From Eledone cirrhosa (Eukaryota), in the NCBI GenBank assembly GCA_964016885.1, contig OZ024750.1:46190001-46254000 (forward strand): 64,000 nucleotides of DNA, in the 5' to 3' direction. The translations under genes and the position numbers were made by a program. Positions 14,701 to 50,690 of this stretch are shown piece by piece. Position 1 is the stretch's first letter. Every line of letters begins with the position of its first letter. A model generated the notes under the pieces. The model made no database searches. It was not told where the DNA came from and was given only the letters and a program-made list of their open reading frames with translations.

Positions 14701-15744
14701 TTCCTTATGAAAATTAACGGCTGAGCAGCCTAATTTGCATATTGAGTGAGTTAAATCGGTTAGGCATACCGAAAACGATAAATTGAAACAAAATGAAAAC
14801 GAAATTTCATTTCTCACTCTTAGTATGGCACTTACTTAAATGTAAGTATGCATGTATACGTACATACATATATGTATACAGACGTACAGTAGCATGCACA
14901 TATACATATATATATATATATATATACACATATATATACATATGCATACAGGTACACATACATATATGCACGTATTAGTTTAGCGGCGCTAACGTCGCTT
15001 TGTTCGCTTGTAAACAAACTGAACAGCCTGAATTTATGCCATACGGTGTTAAGGCAACCACGTCACCTTTTTGTTCAACACTGACACAGGAACGATGTAC
15101 TAGTTTCAAGCTTGTTAGCTATCATCAGCACCGTTTACCCATCTGCCAGATAGTTGAACGTTCGAAAGTATATACTTTCCTTATGAAAATTAACGGCTGA
15201 GCAGCCTAATTTGCATATTGAGTGAGTTAAATCGGTTAGGCATACCGAAAACGATAAATTGAAACAAAATGAAAACGAAATTTCATTTCTCACTCTTAGT
15301 ATGGCACTTACTTAAATGTAAGTATGCATGTATACGTACATACATATATGTATACAGACGTACAGTAGCATGCACATATACACATATATATATATATATA
15401 TATACACATATATATACATATGCATACAGGTACACATACATATATGCACGTATCAGTTTAGCGGCGCTAACGTCGCTTTGTTCGCTTGTAAACAAACTGA
15501 ACAGCCTGAATTTATGCCATACGGTGTTAAGGCAACCACGTCACCTTTTTGTTCAACACTGACACAGGAACGATGTACTAGTTTCAAGCTTGTTAGCTAT
15601 CATCAGCACCGTTTACCCATCTGCCAGATAGTTGAACGTTCGAAAGTATATACTTTCCTTATGAAAATTAACGGCTGAGCAGCCTAATTTGCATATTGAG
15701 TGAGTTAAATCGGTTAGGCATACCGAAAACGATAAATTGAAACA
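5778..15744 (-). repeat. Tandem array of ~21 hammerhead-containing 476/478-bp units (retrozyme concatemer, left arm)
   Basis: Near-identical units with periods 476/478 (unit markers at 6209, 6687, 7163 ... 15269). Each has a HHR on the minus strand. The left end abuts (TA)n. Confidence 0.95.
6031..6075 (-). ncRNA. Type I hammerhead ribozyme (first of 21 copies in the left arm)
   Basis: Minus strand reads AACGGTG-CTGATGA-T-AGCT-AACA-AGCT-T-GAAA-CTAG-TA/CATCGTT. Stem I is 7 bp and extendable via CTGGCA/TGTCAG and GTTCAAC/GTTGAAC. Stem III is minimal and palindromic; the cleavage triplet is GUA. Confidence 0.88.
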
Positions 15745-16039
15745 TAACTCACTCAATATGCAAATTAGGCTGCTCAGCCGTTAATTTTCATAAGGAAAGT
15801 ATATACTTTCGAACGTTCAACTATCTGGCAGATGGGTAAACGGTGCTGATGATAGCTAACAAGCTTGAAACTAGTACATCGTTCCTGTGTCAGTGTTGAA
15901 CAAAAAGGTGACGTGGTTGCCTTAACACCGTATGGCATAAATTCAGGCTGTTCAGTTTGTTTACAAGCGAACAAAGCGACGTTAGCGCCGCTAAACTGAT
16001 ACGTGCATATATGTATGTGTACCTGTATGCATATGTATA

Positions 16040-16070
<31 letters not shown>

Positions 16071-17624
16071 GTGTATATGTGCATGCTACTGTACGTCTGT
16101 ATACATATATGTATGTACGTATACATGCATACTTACATTTAAGTAAGTGCCATACTAAGAGTGAGAAATGAAATTTCGTTTTCATTTTGTTTCAATTTAT
16201 CGTTTTCGGTATGCCTAACCGATTTAACTCACTCAATATGCAAATTAGGCTGCTCAGCCGTTAATTTTCATAAGGAAAGTATATACTTTCGAACGTTCAA
16301 CTATCTGGCAGATGGGTAAACGGTGCTGATGATAGCTAACAAGCTTGAAACTAGTACATCGTTCCTGTGTCAGTGTTGAACAAAAAGGTGACGTGGTTGC
16401 CTTAACACCGTATGGCATAAATTCAGGCTGTTCAGTTTGTTTACAAGCGAACAAAGCGACGTTAGCGCCGCTAAACTGATACGTGCATATATGTATGTGT
16501 ACCTGTATGCATATGTATATATATGTGTATATATATATATATATATATGTATATGTGCATGCTACTGTACGTCTGTATACATATATGTATGTACGTATAC
16601 ATGCATACTTACATTTAAGTAAGTGCCATACTAAGAGTGAGAAATGAAATTTCGTTTTCATTTTGTTTCAATTTATCGTTTTCGGTATGCCTAACCGATT
16701 TAACTCACTCAATATGCAAATTAGGCTGCTCAGCCGTTAATTTTCATAAGGAAAGTATATACTTTCGAACGTTCAACTATCTGGCAGATGGGTAAACGGT
16801 GCTGATGATAGCTAACAAGCTTGAAACTAGTACATCGTTCCTGTGTCAGTGTTGAACAAAAAGGTGACGTGGTTGCCTTAACACCGTATGGCATAAATTC
16901 AGGCTGTTCAGTTTGTTTACAAGCGAACAAAGCGACGTTAGCGCCGCTAAACTGATACGTGCATATATGTATGTGTACCTGTATGCATATGTATATATAT
17001 GTGTATATATATATATATATATATGTGTATATGTGCATGCTACTGTACGTCTGTATACATATATGTATGTACGTATACATGCATACTTACATTTAAGTAA
17101 GTGCCATACTAAGAGTGAGAAATGAAATTTCGTTTTCATTTTGTTTCAATTTATCGTTTTCGGTATGCCTAACCGATTTAACTCACTCAATATGCAAATT
17201 AGGCTGCTCAGCCGTTAATTTTCATAAGGAAAGTATATACTTTCGAACGTTCAACTATCTGGCAGATGGGTAAACGGTGCTGATGATAGCTAACAAGCTT
17301 GAAACTAGTACATCGTTCCTGTGTCAGTGTTGAACAAAAAGGTGACGTGGTTGCCTTAACACCGTATGGCATAAATTCAGGCTGTTCAGTTTGTTTACAA
17401 GCGAACAAAGCGACGTTAGCGCCGCTAAACTGATACGTGCATATATGTATGTGTACCTGTATGCATATGTATATATATGTGTATATATATATATATATAT
17501 ATGTATATGTGCATGCTACTGTACGTCTGTATACATATATGTATGTACGTATACATGCATACTTACATTTAAGTAAGTGCCATACTAAGAGTGAGAAATG
17601 AAATTTCGTTTTCATTTTGTTTCA

Positions 17625-17630
<6 letters not shown>
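15745..17630 (+). repeat. Inverted arm of the same array (~4 units, HHR on + strand)
   Basis: Reverse complement of the left-arm unit, starting TAACTCACTC at 15745 and ending TTTCAATTTAT + (AT)n. Confidence 0.95.
15839..15883 (+). ncRNA. Type I hammerhead ribozyme (first of 4 in the right arm; others at ~16319, 16795, 17273)
   Basis: AACGGTG CTGATGA TAGCTAACAAGCTT GAAA CTAG TA/CATCGTT. Predicted cleavage after 15876. Confidence 0.88.
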
Positions 17631-22484: not shown

Positions 22485-22848
22485 ATTGTTATACTTTGGG
22501 AGGGTCATGTTGCCAATAAGAAACACACGCACCAGTTGCTTTCACTTCAATTTATTATATATTTATAAATTTATAAATTTATAAATTTACAAATCTACAA
22601 ACTTATAAATTTCTGGTTGGTTGGTTGGTTCCACAACCAGATAGTTGTTTATATATAGTCATAGTCCTTTCGTCACACACTCTGTGACCTCTTCAGTGAC
22701 TGGGGATTCCTCTCTTTGTTTCTGTGCCTTTCCTTTCTTCTATCCTACGCCATTTTGTTGGCAACATGACCCTCCCAAAGTATAACAATATCGGTTTCAA
22801 CACACGATTTCAGATAAAGAATCTTGCTAAACAAATTCAGAAACGAAA
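22485..22848. mobile_element. Fold-back element with hammerhead, in (TA)n
   Basis: 34-bp inverted repeat TATTGTTATACTTTGGGAGGGTCATGTTGCCAA (~22485-22518 / 22759-22791) plus a ~55-bp tail. Confidence 0.8.
22657..22701 (-). ncRNA. Type I hammerhead ribozyme (minimal stem III)
   Basis: Minus strand reads AGTCA-CTGAAGA-G-GTCAC-AGAGTGT-GTGAC-GAAA-GGAC-TA/TGACT. Confidence 0.82.
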
Positions 22849-42561: not shown

Positions 42562-42635
<74 letters not shown>

Positions 42636-42672
42636 ATTAAATAAATGGAAACTATATTTATAAAACCATATT

Positions 42673-42738
42673 TATTTCATTATATATATTTCGGGGATAT
42701 CATATTAACAATATGCTATGCCTTCCTCAGACAAAATA
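42673..42738 (-). ncRNA. Type I hammerhead ribozyme (inverted-arm copy)
   Basis: Reverse complement of 47191-47256. Confidence 0.78.
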
Positions 42739-43559
42739 CAATATAAACAGTTTTATAGATAAATAGATTCGACATACCGTTATAACACCGACTTGCATTT
42801 GAAGAGGTTAAGCTGGCAGTGAAAAAATTTTATACAGAGAGAAAGAAAGAGAGAAAAGAAAGAAAGACAGAAAACGAAGAAAAGGAAGAAAAAGAAGAAA
42901 TGCATGGAACAAAATATAGAGATGGAAAGATAGATAAAGAGAAGAACTTCATGTAAAGAAACAGAAAGAGATATATATATATATAGAGAGAGAGGAAATA
43001 GAGATAGATACATATATATATAGAAAATTAGGTAGTGGGAGGTCATTTTGAGTAAATGTATCAATGATACATTTATTTATTTATTTATTTAGCTCTAGTA
43101 TTAATGTAAGGGAGATATATAGAGAGAGAAAAAATATAGAGAGAGAAAAAATAGCGAGAGAGAAAATTTAAAAATAGCCAGATATATTCGAGGCGTAAAA
43201 ACCCTATGTCTTAATGTATTAGAATTCATAAAACTTCCACTATATTGTAAATATCAGTATTCCTGAATGAGACAAGTATCCATAGTGTGTGAAAATTAAT
43301 TATCTTATGTTTAGTTTTTAAAAAAAATTCATATGTTTATGTTATAGCTACAAACATCCATGCGAATCCACATTATCAACTCTGCAAATTCTAAGTTCAC
43401 GGAAAACATTCTCAATGTGGTATAAAAATTTGAGTATACATATATGTGTATTATTATTCCTGTCTTTACTCTACAAGATTATCTATCAAGCAGAAATAGA
43501 GAGCAGATTTCAATATACTAATAAAAATATATATCAGAAACAAAACTAAAAATAAAAAG

Positions 43560-43590
<31 letters not shown>

Positions 43591-43815
43591 GTAATAATAA
43601 AATAGAAAACTAAAAAAATATTACGAAAGAATATTACATATTAAAAATATTACATACTAAAAAATATTACGTATTAAAAAATATTACGTATTAAAAAATT
43701 TACATATTAAAGATATTAAAAATAAAAATAAAAAATATTATAAAATACTACAATAATAAAATCTAAAAGAAATCCACCCCCTAACAAACTTTTATCTGAC
43801 TTTGAAAACGATATA

Positions 43816-45795
43816 ATGTCTATCATACAAGGGGTCAAATTCAAGAGAAACTTCAAAGGCCAGGAATATCTGAAAGGCATTAAGGATAACATTGAGACCT
43901 TAGAGAAAACTGAGAAGATCTTGGTGAAATCTGACAAGACCAACAACCTCTATGGAGTGCAGAAAGACATGTATAATGGCCTCATACTGAAAGAGCTGAG
44001 GAAAAAGTACAAGGTAGCAGATAAGGCCGAACTTGAGAAAATGAATGTCGAAGCATCTTGTATAATGCACGAGTTGGAAATTGAGAACAGAACACAACCT
44101 TTCGTGCCCAGGAAACCGAAGATCAATATGAAGGATCACAAGAGGAATTTTGAAAATGACCTGCCAGTTAGATTGATCGCACCATCAAAATCGGACCTGG
44201 GCAAATTAAGCAAAAACATTCTTGACAGGGTGATACAGCAAATTAAGAACTTGGATTGTGTATCTAACCTGAGCTTGTGGAAGGGAACTGGAGAGGTTGT
44301 TGAGTGGTTTAGGCAAATTAAATATAACAATAATAATAGGTTTATTCAACTTGATATAGCTAACTATTATTCTTCTATTACCCATAGTCTACTAAATAAG
44401 GCACTAAATTACGCATTCAAACATACTGACCTAACTAGCAAAGAAATGCATATTATATTATCGGCTAGGAAAACTTTGATAGAATTTAATGACAAATTAT
44501 GGACCAGAGCAGATAGAGATAGCAATTTTGACATAACTATGGGATCTTCCGACTCAGCTCAGGTAACTGACCTTGTGGGCTTATTTTTAATCAATTCGCT
44601 AAATAGGAAAATACCTGGTACTACCGGAGGTTTATATAGGGATGACATGCTTTTACTTATTAATAATAATAACCCTGAACTAAATAGAAAATGTAAACAA
44701 ATTACAAATTTTTTTAATTACTTTAACCTTAAAATAGAAATTGAGAACAACCATAGAATAGTCAATTTCCTAGATATAACATTAAATCTCAACACATGTC
44801 TCCACTATCCTTTTCACAAGTTGAATGAAAACTTAAACTATGTCAACTTTAACTCTAACCACCCCAGATCTGTCAAAAACACTATAGTAAACTCTATTCA
44901 AAAACGTATCTCTAGGATCTCGTCGAATAGAAAGATTTTCGACGAAAAGGCCCAATACTATAATGAAGCATTAGCTAGGGCAGGATATGCTGATAAGATT
45001 GTGTACATAGATAATGATAGACAAACTAAACAAAGTAACAACTTTTTTAATTACGGCAACAACATTAACAACTATAATAGAAAGCATTACAATAATTCCA
45101 AAGGCCAAAAAAGAAATAGAACTAGGAACATAATTTGGTTCGCCCCCCCTTTCTCACTAAACATTAAAACCCACATCGCTAAATTATTTTTCAAAGCTCT
45201 TGATAATCACTTCCCTAGAACACATAGGTATCATTCAATTTTCAATAGGCATACAATTAAATTAACCTACTCATCCACCAAAAATTTAGCACAAAATATT
45301 AATAGAATAAATAATAGGAACTTAAAACCTAGTGATAATAGCATAAATAATATACAAGTTAACAAATGTAACTGTAGAGATAGATCTAAATGTCCGTTAA
45401 ATAACAACTGCTTAGTTAAAAATATAGTATACAATTGTAATGGTAATACTGACTCTAATTCTTTTAACTACGTCGGTTCCACATCGACGGAATTTAAACT
45501 TCGCTATAATAACCACAAGAATTCTTTCACAGATCCAAGTAAAAAATCTTCAACGGCACTATCAGGCGTACTCTGGCAACTTAAGCTAGATAACGTTAGA
45601 TATTCGACGGCTTGGAATATAGTCTCAAGGGGGATTCCTTTTAATTCATCCTCTGAGACATGTGACCTCTGCGCAGAGGAGATATTCTTTATACTAAAAT
45701 CTAAAAATTCCCTTAATCTACGGACAAATTTATTCAGTTGTTGCAAACATAGATTAAACTCAACGTTTAAATATAAATTTAAATTTAAAATGTAG
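43816..45795 (+). CDS. Penelope-like reverse transcriptase + GIY-YIG endonuclease (probably Naiad-type), N-terminus likely truncated
   Basis: Motifs in order: KSDKT, KDHK..RLI, DIANYYSSI, GSSDS, LYRDD, NFLDITL, SNHP, WFAPPF, CxCx5Cx5C zinc finger, IVY..YVGST..FKLRYNNH, CDLC. The frame stays open upstream (KSKRNPPP..FENDI) to the inversion junction at ~43761. The clade assignment is from recalled motif layout. Confidence 0.95.
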   Translation: MSIIQGVKFKRNFKGQEYLKGIKDNIETLEKTEKILVKSDKTNNLYGVQKDMYNGLILKELRKKYKVADKAELEKMNVEASCIMHELEIENRTQPFVPRKPKINMKDHKRNFENDLPVRLIAPSKSDLGKLSKNILDRVIQQIKNLDCVSNLSLWKGTGEVVEWFRQIKYNNNNRFIQLDIANYYSSITHSLLNKALNYAFKHTDLTSKEMHIILSARKTLIEFNDKLWTRADRDSNFDITMGSSDSAQVTDLVGLFLINSLNRKIPGTTGGLYRDDMLLLINNNNPELNRKCKQITNFFNYFNLKIEIENNHRIVNFLDITLNLNTCLHYPFHKLNENLNYVNFNSNHPRSVKNTIVNSIQKRISRISSNRKIFDEKAQYYNEALARAGYADKIVYIDNDRQTKQSNNFFNYGNNINNYNRKHYNNSKGQKRNRTRNIIWFAPPFSLNIKTHIAKLFFKALDNHFPRTHRYHSIFNRHTIKLTYSSTKNLAQNINRINNRNLKPSDNSINNIQVNKCNCRDRSKCPLNNNCLVKNIVYNCNGNTDSNSFNYVGSTSTEFKLRYNNHKNSFTDPSKKSSTALSGVLWQLKLDNVRYSTAWNIVSRGIPFNSSSETCDLCAEEIFFILKSKNSLNLRTNLFSCCKHRLNSTFKYKFKFKM

Positions 45796-47190
45796 TATAT
45801 TTAGTTTGATTTATATTTATATGGGAAACTAGCCGATAAATTTTTGATTCCTAAATTTTTGATTCCTTCTTTTTATTCTTTTTTTATTGTTTATTTTTAT
45901 TTTATTTTTATTTAAACATTCCTCATGAAAAATTAAGCTACCCTAAAAGCTGATGCTCCAAATATTTTGAATAAACCTTACACTAGATAAACTTCTATAT
46001 TAAATATAAGAACACATGTAGACCTAATTGGACATCATAAACTTTTTGAAATGATCTTTGCTAGATGTGATTTGATAGATAATTTTTGGCCTTGTCTTAT
46101 AATGAACTTGGCAATATATTGTCAATTAATTTTGAAGGGTTGATCTTTGTGGTTTATTTTTATTTTTTATTATTGTAGTATTTTATAATATTTTTTATTT
46201 TTATTTTTAATATCTTTAATTATGTAAATTTTTTAATACGTAATATTTTTTAATACGTAATATTTTTTAGTATGTAATATTTTTAATATGTAATATTCTT
46301 TCGTAATATTTTTTTAGTTTTCTATTTTATTATTACTTATTATTATTATTATTATTATTGTTATCTTTTTATTTTTAGTTTTGTTTCTGATATATATTTT
46401 TATTAGTATATTGAAATCTGCTCTCTATTTCTGCTTGATAGATAATCTTGTAGAGTAAAGACAGGAATAATAATACACATATATGTATACTCAAATTTTT
46501 ATACCACATTGAGAATGTTTTCCGTGAACTTAGAATTTGCAGAGTTGATAATGTGGATTCGCATGGATGTTTGTAGCTATAACATAAACATATGAATTTT
46601 TTAAAAAACTAAACATAAGATAATTAATTTTCACACACTATGGATACTTGTCTCATTCAGGAATACTGATATTTACAATATAGTGGAAGTTTTATGAATT
46701 CTAATACGTTAAGACATAGGGTTTTTACGCCTCGAATATATCTGGCTATTTTTAAATTTTCTCTCTCGCTATTTTTTCTCTCTCTATATTTTTTTTCTCT
46801 CTATATATATCTCCCTTACATTAATACTAGAGCTAAATAAATAAATAAATAAATAAATGTATCATTGATACATTTACTCAAAATGACCTCCCACTACCTA
46901 ATTTTCTATATATATATGTATCTATCTCTATTTCCTCTCTCTCTCTCTATATATATATCTCTTTCTGTTTCTTTACATGAAGTTCTTCTCTTTATCTATC
47001 TTTCCATTTCTATATTTTGTTCCATGCATTTCTTCTTTTTCTTCCTTTTCTTCGTTTTCTGTCTTTCTTTCTTTTCTCTCTTTCTTTCTCTCTGTATAAA
47101 ATTTTTTCACTGCCAGCTTAACCTCTTCAAATGCAAGTCGGTGTTATAACGGTATGTCGAATCTATTTATCTATAAAACTGTTTATATTG

Positions 47191-47256
47191 TATTTTGTCT
47201 GAGGAAGGCATAGCATATTGTTAATATGATATCCCCGAAATATATATAATGAAATA
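47191..47256 (+). ncRNA. Type I hammerhead ribozyme in the Penelope 3' terminal repeat
   Basis: TATTTTGT-CTGAGGA-AGG..CATATT-GTT-AATATG..CCC-GAAA-TATATA-TA/ATGAAATA. Sense to the ORF, as is known for PLE pLTRs. Confidence 0.8.
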
Positions 47257-47386
47257 AATATGGTTTTATAAATATAGTTTCCATTTATTTAATATTGTAA
47301 ATATACTCCAAATATTTGTCGAGTGCTTTTATATCAGTTATAAATATTTACTAGTTGTAACCCAACAATTTTAAATATAACTTTCC

Positions 47387-47413
<27 letters not shown>

Positions 47414-47417
<4 letters not shown>

Positions 47418-47572
47418 GTTCCTGTGTCAGTGTTGAACAAAAAGGTGACGTGGTTGCCTGAACACTGTACGGCGTAATTCAGGCTGTTCGTTTGTTTTCA
47501 AGCGAACAAACCGAGCATTATAATAAATGTTCGGTAAACTGATACGTGCATATATATATGTGTGCCTGTATG

Positions 47573-47653
<81 letters not shown>

Positions 47654-47741
47654 GCTACTGTACGTATGTATACATACATACTTACATTTAAGTAAGTGCC
47701 GTACTAAGAGTGATAAATGAAATTTCGTTTCATTCTATTCC

Positions 47742-47745
<4 letters not shown>
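47414..47745 (+). mobile_element. Solo diverged copy of the array unit, starting at the HHR cleavage site
   Basis: Begins CATCGTTCCTGTGTCAGTGTTGAACAAAAAGGTGACGTGGTTGCCT, identical to 15877 onward. Ends at the same region as the array's right end; (TA)n on both sides. Confidence 0.9.
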
Positions 47746-47791
<46 letters not shown>

Positions 47792-48096
47792 CACAAATAT
47801 CAAAGTTATGTTCAAATCATTTAATCGCTGACAATTGTTTCTTCCAAACTTTAGTTTGGAGTCATCGCAGCATTATCAATGTTTGTACCTGTAATTACCT
47901 CCTATTCAACTGAAGAATTATATAGAAACATATATATTGATGTTGTGAACAACAGTTTAGTATTTACAGTGTGTAATGGATGCGACATATATTATACGAG
48001 AATTGTACAATAATTCAAATTAAAATTAAAAGCACAGAGTGGAATACATTCGACAGATAATACAAGATAAGGGTGTATATATTTTAGAGTCTAGGT

Positions 48097-49298
48097 AACA
48101 CCCTTTCATAAACCTAACGAAAAACTAATTTTTGTGGATACCAAGTCTAACTACCCTAAATCCATATTAAACTCAATCACTAAAGGAATATCTAATAGAA
48201 TCTCTTGTCTATCATATAACGAAACCATATTTAACAATAATTCCCAATACTATAATTAGGCATTAGCTAAATCAGGCCATACAAATGGGGTTGAATTCCT
48301 ACCTTTAAAATCACCTAGTTACAGCATCATTTCTCACAATATGCCCATGAGGAAAAATAATAAGAGTACTAGCCACTCTTACTCTAATACGAAGGGTAAT
48401 ATCAAACTTAACTCGCACCAAAGTAAACACCACGATAATATTATAAACAGAAATACAAAAAACAAAAATAGAGGAACTAATACATTCTTCAATCCCCCTT
48501 TCAATCTAAATGTCTCTACCAACTTGCCTAGGGCTTTCTTCTCAATCCTAGAAAAAAACTTCCCATCTGGCCACAAATACCATAATCTTATAAATAAAAA
48601 TACCATTAAAATCTCTTACTCTACCACACCTAACATCGCATACCATATATCTAGTAGTAATAAAAGGAAGATTAATAATTATTTCCAACTAATTAAAACA
48701 CAGCAGGAGGTAAACTTACAGAACAACATAGTACCTATAAACCCTAGTAGCAATAGTAATAATGGTAATAGCGCTAATGAAATCAATAACAATAGGAACG
48801 ACAACCATCATTACCCTAATGCTATCCATAGGCAACCAGACTTCTACACAACATAGTAACTGGCAAGCTAACATCCAAAATAAATGTAACTGTAGATCAA
48901 ATAGAACTTGCGCATTAGGTAATAATTGCTCAATCAAATACATCATTTACTCCTGCACGGTCAATACAAACAACTCTTCTAAAACATATATTGGCTCTAC
49001 TTCGAACTGCTTCAATACGAGATACAACTCGCACCTCCACTCTTTCAAAAAACACAATCTAGCCAACTCCACCTCACTATCTAGTTACATACACTCTCTG
49101 AAAACTAGGAATAGACCATATACACTTTAATGGGAAGTAGTAGGTATGGCTACATCGTATAAACCACCGAATACATTATGTAACCTCTATCTTCTAGAGG
49201 TTTCGAAACTAAACCTCCTAAATAAAAAGTCAGAGGTGTTTTCCTCATGCCAGCACCACTACCGACACTCATTCCATAACTTTAAACCTAGCCGCTAG
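48097..49298 (+). pseudogene. Disrupted Penelope thumb/linker/GIY-YIG coding region
   Basis: PFHKPN..SNYPKSI, FFNPPFN, CNCRSNRTCALGNNC, IIYSC..YIGST..FNTRYNSH, with stops and a frameshift. Confidence 0.88.
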
Positions 49299-50470
49299 TA
49301 TATAACAATGTCAAATTTGAAATCCTCACCACCATTAACACTTCACCTCTAAAACTTTTCTTCCCCCCCTGCATCACACTCTTTGATCTGTTCTTTCCTC
49401 TACACAACTCCTATTTATCTCAAACATTATACTCTACAATAACTATTAGAAACAAACATATAGTCACCACATTTTAATATAACTACTTTAGATTACTTAT
49501 AATATATACAGTAATGGATATATAATATGTAGAGACATTAAATGTAATGTGTGACAATGAATTATATATACATTTATAATTAAATGTATAAATTAATAAC
49601 ATTGTATATAAAGGATTAAATTATTAAAATAAGGGATTTATCTGATTGGACATGTAAACAACTATACATTATTCCATATCTTGCCTAGTATTGGGTAGAT
49701 AACAATCTAATGAAACCGTTAATATATTATGAGAGAGTAGACTGTATTTAAAATTAAATATAAATATATAACATTATGTAAAAAGGATTCAATTGTGACA
49801 CTATATATTGTCTATTAGAGCAAATAATTTAATTAGTTTAATGAGCTAGTTACCTCCCCTTACGCATTAGCTCCCCTTAATTTTGGATCTCATATCCACT
49901 TCCGGATATTAAACCGTTGGAAAATCTTGCTGTAGAACAACTCTAATCCATGAATATGAATACAATATGACCAATTTACAATCCATTACTATAACTAACT
50001 AAAAACATTCAATACAAACATTAACTAAAATATAATTTAACATATGTAATGGATAGGAAATCATTAACTTTCATATTCTCCACACATACAAATTTGAACT
50101 CTACTGAAACTATCGTCGCATTACATCCTCCATAATACACTAACATATTCGCTTAAAGTGCTTGTATTTTATGTAATATCTTGCCATACAGTATTCATAT
50201 GTGCCTAATACCTTTGCTTGTTTCCTTCTCGTGTATATGACTAATGTATATGCAATCTCTACACGCTTGAATATGGACTTCTTTCTTGTATTATCTGTCG
50301 CATGTATTCCACTCTGTGCTTTTAATTTGAATTTAAATTATTGTACAATTCTCGTATAATATATGTCGCATCCATTACACCCTGTAAATACTGTTGTTCA
50401 GAACATCAATATATATGTATATATATGATTGTTCAGTTGAATAGAAGGTTAATTAGATGTACAAACATTG

Positions 50471-50526
50471 TTAATGCTCCGATGACTCCAAACTAAAGTT
50501 TGGAAGAAACAATTGTCAGCGATTAA
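50471..50526 (+). ncRNA. Hammerhead ribozyme, core variant CCGAUGA
   Basis: TTAATGCT-CCGATGA-C-TCCAAACT-AA-AGTTTGGA-A-GAAA-CAATTG-TC/AGCGATTAA. Inverted copy at 47821-47876 has core GCGATGA. Confidence 0.7.
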
Positions 50527-50690
50527 ATGATTTGAACATAACTTTGATATTTGTGTAATTTATATTCCTGCTCTGTAAAACACCTGATGTTCTTACATTG
50601 AGCTGTTTCTCTTACTGGTAATAAGGTAGTAATAAATTACTGACCTTTCCTGTTTATAGTTGTTTATAGTATAGTATATATATAACAATA

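Follow-up and report, generated by a model that had tools for sequence, protein, structure and literature searches.

The retrozyme family found in the window (the whole 64,000-nucleotide stretch analysed, from 46,190,001 to 46,254,000 of contig OZ024750.1 of Eledone cirrhosa) is best explained, with a probability that we put at roughly 0.8, as a non-LTR retrozyme copied by a Hydra-type reverse transcriptase from uncut and probably circular RNA, the solo copy at 47414..47745 (+) being a member that was truncated by chance. The first-pass annotation, made on this DNA from the sequence alone, had noticed that the solo copy starts exactly at the predicted ribozyme cleavage site and had interpreted it as the retro-copy of a self-cleaved RNA, and its start as evidence of hammerhead activity in vivo. 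Counts of 5' ends over the genome do not bear out this interpretation, and it is the 3' ends and the inverted arms of the insertions that carry the information on how the family moves.

The window holds 25 retrozyme units, which form a non-coding tandem repeat with a hammerhead motif in each unit. The left arm of this array (5777..15744, -) comprises 21 units of alternately 476 and 478 bp, with one break in the alternation, and has its 3' end at the second of the two sites described below (ACATTTA followed by TA, ~+261 to +266, where +1 is the first base after the predicted cut). The right, inverted arm (15745..17627, +) comprises about four units and has its 3' end at the main site (CAATTTA followed by TA, ~+319). 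Counted from both 3' ends, the 478/476 alternation has the same phase in the two arms; in the left arm, four consecutive short units at ~7470-9370 shift this phase. The 3.0-Gb genome contains 15,874 exact matches to a 19-mer that starts at the cut, and the family therefore comprises at least 15,874 units. Non-coding tandem units, one type I hammerhead per unit and many genomic copies are the features of a non-LTR retrozyme, and open reading frames (ORFs) of Hydra-type Penelope-like elements (PLEs) co-exist with the retrozyme both in the window and at about 28 retrieved loci.

In one array unit, the predicted type I hammerhead motif (15839..15883, +, with the cut predicted between 15876 and 15877, after GUA and before C) can be drawn with a 7-bp stem I, a CUGAUGA core, a 4-bp stem II above a U-U, GAAA and a 2-bp stem III, every pair being standard or G-U. 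Rfam gave a weak match to Hammerhead_HH9 (18.5 bits, with an E of 0.033, for a gathering score of 52) and no match for the motif at the gathering level, and unconstrained folding of the motif did not produce the hammerhead fold. Among 143 copies the core is near-invariant: variants present in more than 10% of the copies are confined to N7, loop II, the distal base of stem I and one G-U to A-U pair, and none of the 11 core positions is variable, compared with 6 of 51 in the flanks. As the common variants spare the core and the pairing, the predicted ribozyme looks conserved for function, modest as this evidence is with so few variable sites. Further hammerhead-like patterns (CUGANGA...GAAA) are present in other repeats of the window, at 22696 (-), 18519 (+), 41267 (-), 50992 (-) and 5471 (-), their pairing having been judged by eye at most. 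Dozens of dispersed retrozyme copies, almost all of them of the CTGACGA subfamily, have lost stem II to a deletion of 8 nt that recurs between two AGCT repeats.

The metazoan non-LTR retrozymes known from coral, mussel and axolotl are self-cleaving and build up as circular RNA (Cervera and de la Pena 2020, PMC7229834), and PLEs have been proposed as their helpers. Like them, the Eledone family is made of tandem units that do not code, measure a few hundred bases and carry one type I hammerhead each; it has a low G+C content, thousands of copies and a predicted RNA that is highly self-paired, and co-occurs with PLEs; the U-U at the base of stem II is shared with axolotl HHR_Amex2 (PMC7229834). 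Its unit of 465-500 nt lies at the upper end of the range of 150-450 bp given for metazoan retrozymes and contains an internal TA-rich hairpin, unlike those described in that article, whose passages on metazoan retrozymes likewise do not describe (TA)n targeting, inverted arms or two fixed 3' ends, all of which characterise the Eledone family (PMC7229834). Circles have been demonstrated for metazoan retrozymes (PMC7229834); for the Eledone family they are proposed. As judged from its sequence, the family fits the metazoan non-LTR retrozymes. It may also be common to related species; sequencing runs labelled as four different organisms contain 58-86% of the words of the retrozyme unit.

The solo copy is a 5'-truncated member of subfamily B that covers unit positions +1 to ~+319. 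A (TA)n tract at 47387..47413 separates it from the 3' end of a Hydra element, and its own 3' end is joined, at the main 3' site of the family, to the (TA)n at 47746..47790. The 5' boundary reads (TA)13 followed by CATCGTT, with CATCGTTCC running from 47414 directly after the TA run, and the array counterpart of its first C follows the GUA at 15874-15876. The copy begins, as had been noted, at the predicted cut site just 3' of GUA, lacks the upstream ribozyme core and terminates at the same point as the right arm of the array (ATTTA followed by TATA). The remark that the preceding TA could be attributed to either the cleavage triplet or the microsatellite was also correct: this TA fits both, so that the copy may truly start at -2, -1 or +1, three positions that we pooled as the "cut bin". 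The copy had been described as diverged, which holds for its 81.6% identity to the array but does not mean decay, as it belongs to a second subfamily and is 96-97% identical to other genomic copies.

To count 5' junctions over the genome, we used patterns that combine an anchor at +19 with non-consensus bases in stem II and are expected to find family starts from -9 to +19; they returned 169+190+170 = 529 such copies. From contigs C1 and C2 we retrieved every one of the 186 rows, which makes the sample complete for these two contigs, and the removal of duplicates and of copies with a mere indel in an intact ribozyme (three by hand) left 140 junctions, of which 97 are inversions, 15 are TA-joined, 3 are sense and 25 are of other types. 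Starts are found over all positions of this -9 to +19 interval and the spike at CATCGTT that had been anticipated is not seen: the cut bin holds 10 of the 140 junctions for 15 expected under uniformity (p 0.94 for an excess), only one of them being exactly at +1, while the flanking bins hold 11 (-5..-3) and 14 (+2..+4). Addition of loci on C3-C5 gave 13 of 172 in the cut bin. Genome-wide, a cut-bin pattern that required a first letter other than C gave 44 rows; sorted by eye, 15 of these were indels or starts elsewhere and 29 were true junctions (20 inversions, 8 TA-joined and 1 other), for about 28-33 expected from a background of about 14 per base. Spread 5' ends without enrichment at the cut are precisely what the first-pass annotation had named as evidence against its own reading. 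The solo copy is one in 15,874 and there is no genome-wide spike, so its exact start is no more than chance, and neither its origin from self-cleaved RNA nor hammerhead activity in vivo can be deduced from it. In the best explanation the solo copy is a randomly 5'-truncated, single-armed insertion, whose start at the cut site is coincidental and aided by TA microhomology.

The histogram of the 140 junctions is not flat (chi-square p 0.002) and rises towards the anchor. We therefore compared it with an upstream control window, the pattern for which gave 507 rows in total; of the 80 C1 rows, tallied by eye, 61 were true junctions, within 32 nt, compared with 61 in 28 nt at the cut window, and the same rise was visible (22 of 61 in the nearest eight positions, by eye, and 58 of 140 in the cut window). 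Since the control shows a similar density and the same rise, we read the rise as ascertainment. The density of junctions also steps up across the cut, from 2.9 per nt at -9..-3 to 6.1 at +2..+19, which was considered as a signal and is ascribed to ascertainment as well; just 3' of the cut, a slight and smeared excess may exist. Ligation scars at the cut were another candidate that we rejected: deletions of at least 3 nt were present at 8 loci, versus 4 in the downstream control and dozens in the upstream control, which has a direct repeat. These deletions follow microhomology, and there is no excess of them at the cut.

It is very improbable, on these counts, that the solo copy arose as a run-off cDNA from a linear RNA with a ribozyme-cleaved 5' end and that such products are a real route by which the family spreads. 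A copy spanning exactly +1 to the main 3' site is what this route would give, eight TA-joined copies in the genome start at the cut (leaving aside one duplicated pair with a substitution) and the hammerhead core is conserved; but starts in the cut bin are at background, TA-joined starts are as common at +2 (9, with 4 more at -5, 2 at -1 and 1 at +3), and the 95% upper bound of 42 on the observed count leaves room for an excess of at most about 14 detected copies among at least 4,097 insertions. In vitro, moreover, a PLE takes unprocessed RNA as its dominant substrate: with the Poseidon element, hammerhead cleavage was not needed and no reads ended at the cut (PMC11167929), a result that anticipates our negative at the cut. 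As a single copy, the solo may have arisen from cleaved RNA. A looser pattern found 40 TA-joined 5' starts near +318, about four times as many as at the cut; they lie just past the main 3' site, and candidate causes are microhomology that is better there, a complete turn around a circle or TA tracts that separate units.

The 3' ends of the family are fixed. Genome-wide, one internal site, ~+319, is where 4,097 copies are joined to (TA)n (the family total being at least this), and a second fixed site is present at ~+261, about 58 nt away. When 414 copies were tracked downstream, 116 ran into a next unit, 106 reached a TA junction near +319 and 61 reached one near +261; for most of the remainder, either the copy terminates within the internal TA-rich hairpin or its course could not be traced. 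The two sites are used in pairs: in 72 of 119 inverted insertions, each end lies at one or other of the two sites (the other 47 having at least one end elsewhere or not assigned) and 68 of these 72 combine one of each, for 36 expected if the ends were independent, the remaining 2 + 2 using the same site twice. Where TA is present on both flanks, 38 of 41 inverted insertions are mixed. The +261 arm is the longer one in 32 of the 68 mixed insertions, a count to be read knowing that most loci were picked for junctions near the ribozyme, which biases arm lengths, and in the window it has 21 units versus 4; a simple fold-back of the other arm, consequently, does not explain it. In all 48 comparable cases the two arms of an insertion share their subfamily, with an edit distance of 1.1 between arms versus 5.5 between insertions, a similarity that homogenisation after insertion could also produce.

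Fixed 3' ends, a tail on one arm, random 5' truncation and an inverted arm together make up the insertion anatomy of PLEs. The earlier claim that the family moves via RNA is upheld on these other grounds, namely 3' ends fixed within (TA)n, 5' ends at random positions and 5' inversions. In sequence terms, the paired fixed 3' ends correspond to the "tail" signature of Penelope-like elements, which is also carried by the Hydra-clade element next to the solo copy, and we regard the link between the retrozyme and these elements as real. A literature search of incomplete coverage, made on articles without their supplements (those of PMC7229834 and PMC11167929 may bear on the question), found neither a 5'-end histogram nor paired 3' ends for an animal retrozyme.

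The neighbouring element has the architecture of the retrozyme insertions, with inverted arms that both end in (TA)n and one arm 80 nt longer than the other. Its inverted arm (42624..43735, -) has a hammerhead-like core at 42730 and, lacking the tail, reaches (TA)n 80 nt earlier than the other arm does; its 3' arm (46192..47386, +) has a hammerhead-like core at 47199 and an 80-nt tail, and ends in (TA)n. The same two-end pattern was found at several loci for other copies of this Hydra family. Between the arms, an open ORF (43744..45795, +) encodes a Penelope-like reverse transcriptase and a GIY-YIG-type endonuclease; when read against the description of the clade, it shows the DKT and CxCX5C linker motifs as well as a GIY-YIG-type domain at its C-terminus, and these, with the (TA)n target and a hammerhead-like core recognised by pattern only, are the Hydra-clade characters. 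The closest named relative of the ORF is an Argonauta protein (40%), and Pfam gave no matches for the three PLE ORFs submitted. The solo copy had been placed immediately after an intact-ORF Penelope element: it does adjoin a Hydra-clade element, but the ORF, although free of stops, starts at the inversion junction, upstream of which the frame is full of stops, and lacks about 60 N-terminal residues including the RWK motif, which are present in the homologue P0002, so that it is 5'-truncated rather than intact.

The retrozyme resembles the Hydra-clade PLEs (Craig et al. 2021, PMC8557442) in its (TA)n targeting, 5' truncation, inverted 5'-truncated copy, tail at one end and hammerhead, and differs from them in being non-coding, in forming long perfect tandems and in having no significant homology to the Hydra termini of the window (best E 0.68 against the four element ends). 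Its tail of ~58 nt and the 80-nt tail of the neighbouring element compare with 30-40 nt in Hydra-clade PLEs (PMC8557442). No chimeric retrozyme/PLE junctions were recognised among the PLE-containing loci retrieved. For the Poseidon element PAc, it has been found in vitro that both target strands are extended and that two internal starts of reverse transcription define the tail (Frangieh et al. 2024, PMC11167929); the retrozyme insertions likewise suggest two internal starts and extension of both strands, and show no excess of ends at the hammerhead site. PAc, however, is an autonomous element studied in vitro, with no difference in start site between strands, whereas the arms of the retrozyme, a non-autonomous RNA, use different sites in 68 of 72 cases (PMC11167929). 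That retrozymes derive from PLEs as non-autonomous elements has been argued from co-occurrence and pLTR homology in vertebrates (bioRxiv 10.64898/2026.07.22.740005); we arrive at the same dependence on PLEs as that preprint, here on the basis of insertion anatomy and with no homology found to the PLE ends of the window.

On its other side, the solo copy is followed by a second, degraded Hydra-related element with inverted ends (47782..50565, +), and another Hydra-related remnant lies at 1299-2759 (-). The remnant at 47782-50565, the solo copy and the element at 42624-47386 form a chain in one TA tract. That the solo copy adjoins a Penelope-like element follows from the fact that both target (TA)n, and locus L121 has the same order of elements as the window, with the retrozyme starting at +17. 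The 5' end of the solo copy could, alternatively, be post-insertional, a longer copy having been trimmed either when a deletion extended into the TA tract or when the Hydra element arrived. Most insertions of the family are two-armed (97 of the 140 junctions being inversions) and the solo copy sits between two Hydra-related elements in one TA tract, which would fit trimming, but single-armed, TA-joined copies also exist without a visible upstream element (L263, L282 and L287), and we consider trimming unlikely; it concerns the solo copy alone and is compatible with the preferred model of the family.

With regard to the template RNA, the arms traverse the cut site without extra stopping, are up to 21 units long and consist of identical or strictly alternating units. 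The solo copy is the exact product that a linear cut monomer primed at +319 would yield and yet such products are at background, which argues against the linear cut monomer as template. Among 15 further loci with at least four anchor matches, strict alternation was found at one (L321, G000:C3:200077000-200086500), where one substitution alternates strictly over 14 units, and weak alternation at another (L240); five show no differences between full units, one has a single full unit and the others show scattered differences. The L321 array is preceded by a different, 551-bp unit. At L108-L112 (G000:C1:184445900-184447830), five tandem units in one arm carry the same 7-nt deletion, which removes stem III and the triplet; elsewhere this ribozyme-killing deletion was found in one single copy, on C19, and there is no parent array in the assembly. 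Such patterns probably reflect rolling-circle copying of monomeric or dimeric circles, to judge from the arrays as they stand.

A rather less likely alternative, although a better one than either trimming or run-off cDNA, is that the templates are uncut linear multimers transcribed from existing arrays, with a slow or silent ribozyme and no circle, the arrays growing later by DNA slippage or unequal crossing over. It would explain the missing 5' spike equally well, and is consistent with the weak features of the ribozyme (the U-U at the base of stem II and the 2-bp stem III), with the failure of 8 out of 9 Xenopus retrozyme dimers to cleave in vitro (bioRxiv 10.64898/2026.07.22.740005) and with the existence of the five-unit array that carries the ribozyme-killing deletion; it is possible that long arrays grew as DNA in this way. 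It accounts poorly, however, for the shared phase of the alternation in the two arms of the window, for the strict alternation over 14 units at L321 and for a deleted array that has only one other, single copy as a relative in the assembly; the common variants, moreover, spare the ribozyme core and preserve its pairing, and related animal retrozymes accumulate as circles (PMC7229834).

In the reading that we prefer, copying from uncut and probably circular RNA, a Hydra-type Penelope-like reverse transcriptase/endonuclease would cut a (TA)n target and both DNA ends would prime reverse transcription on one retrozyme RNA, at ~+319 and ~+261. Each cDNA would then grow in the upstream direction, passing the ribozyme site and in many cases going round several units, before stopping at random, after which the two cDNAs would be joined head to head or one of them would be joined directly to the TA target, as in the solo copy. 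The template would be a monomeric or dimeric circle, produced by ribozyme cutting and ligation, rather than a linear cut monomer. For the more specific proposal that young insertions record twin-primed, rolling-circle reverse transcription by a dimeric Hydra-type PLE on a single ribozyme-made circle, with starts at ~+319 and ~+261 and with monomeric and dimeric circles giving identical and alternating arrays, respectively, we see the chances as about even.

The start of the solo copy at the cut site is thus no evidence for cleavage in vivo, and the family matters more than this one copy. How the tandem and inverted structures of PLEs are formed has been flagged as an open question (PMC8557442), and the mobilisation of retrozymes by PLEs from circles is a proposal based on co-occurrence and homology (PMC7229834; bioRxiv 10.64898/2026.07.22.740005). 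With at least 4,097 insertions, paired fixed ends, arms of the same variant and arrays of period 1 or period 2, the Eledone family allows both questions to be tested by counts within a single genome, and the anatomy of its insertions names two start sites of reverse transcription for an in vitro assay. This anatomy provides useful and testable support for a PLE-driven, probably rolling-circle, mobilisation of the family. If true, the twin-primed rolling-circle reading would constitute genome-level evidence for the proposed life cycle of retrozymes and for the origin of the inverted repeats and tails of PLEs.
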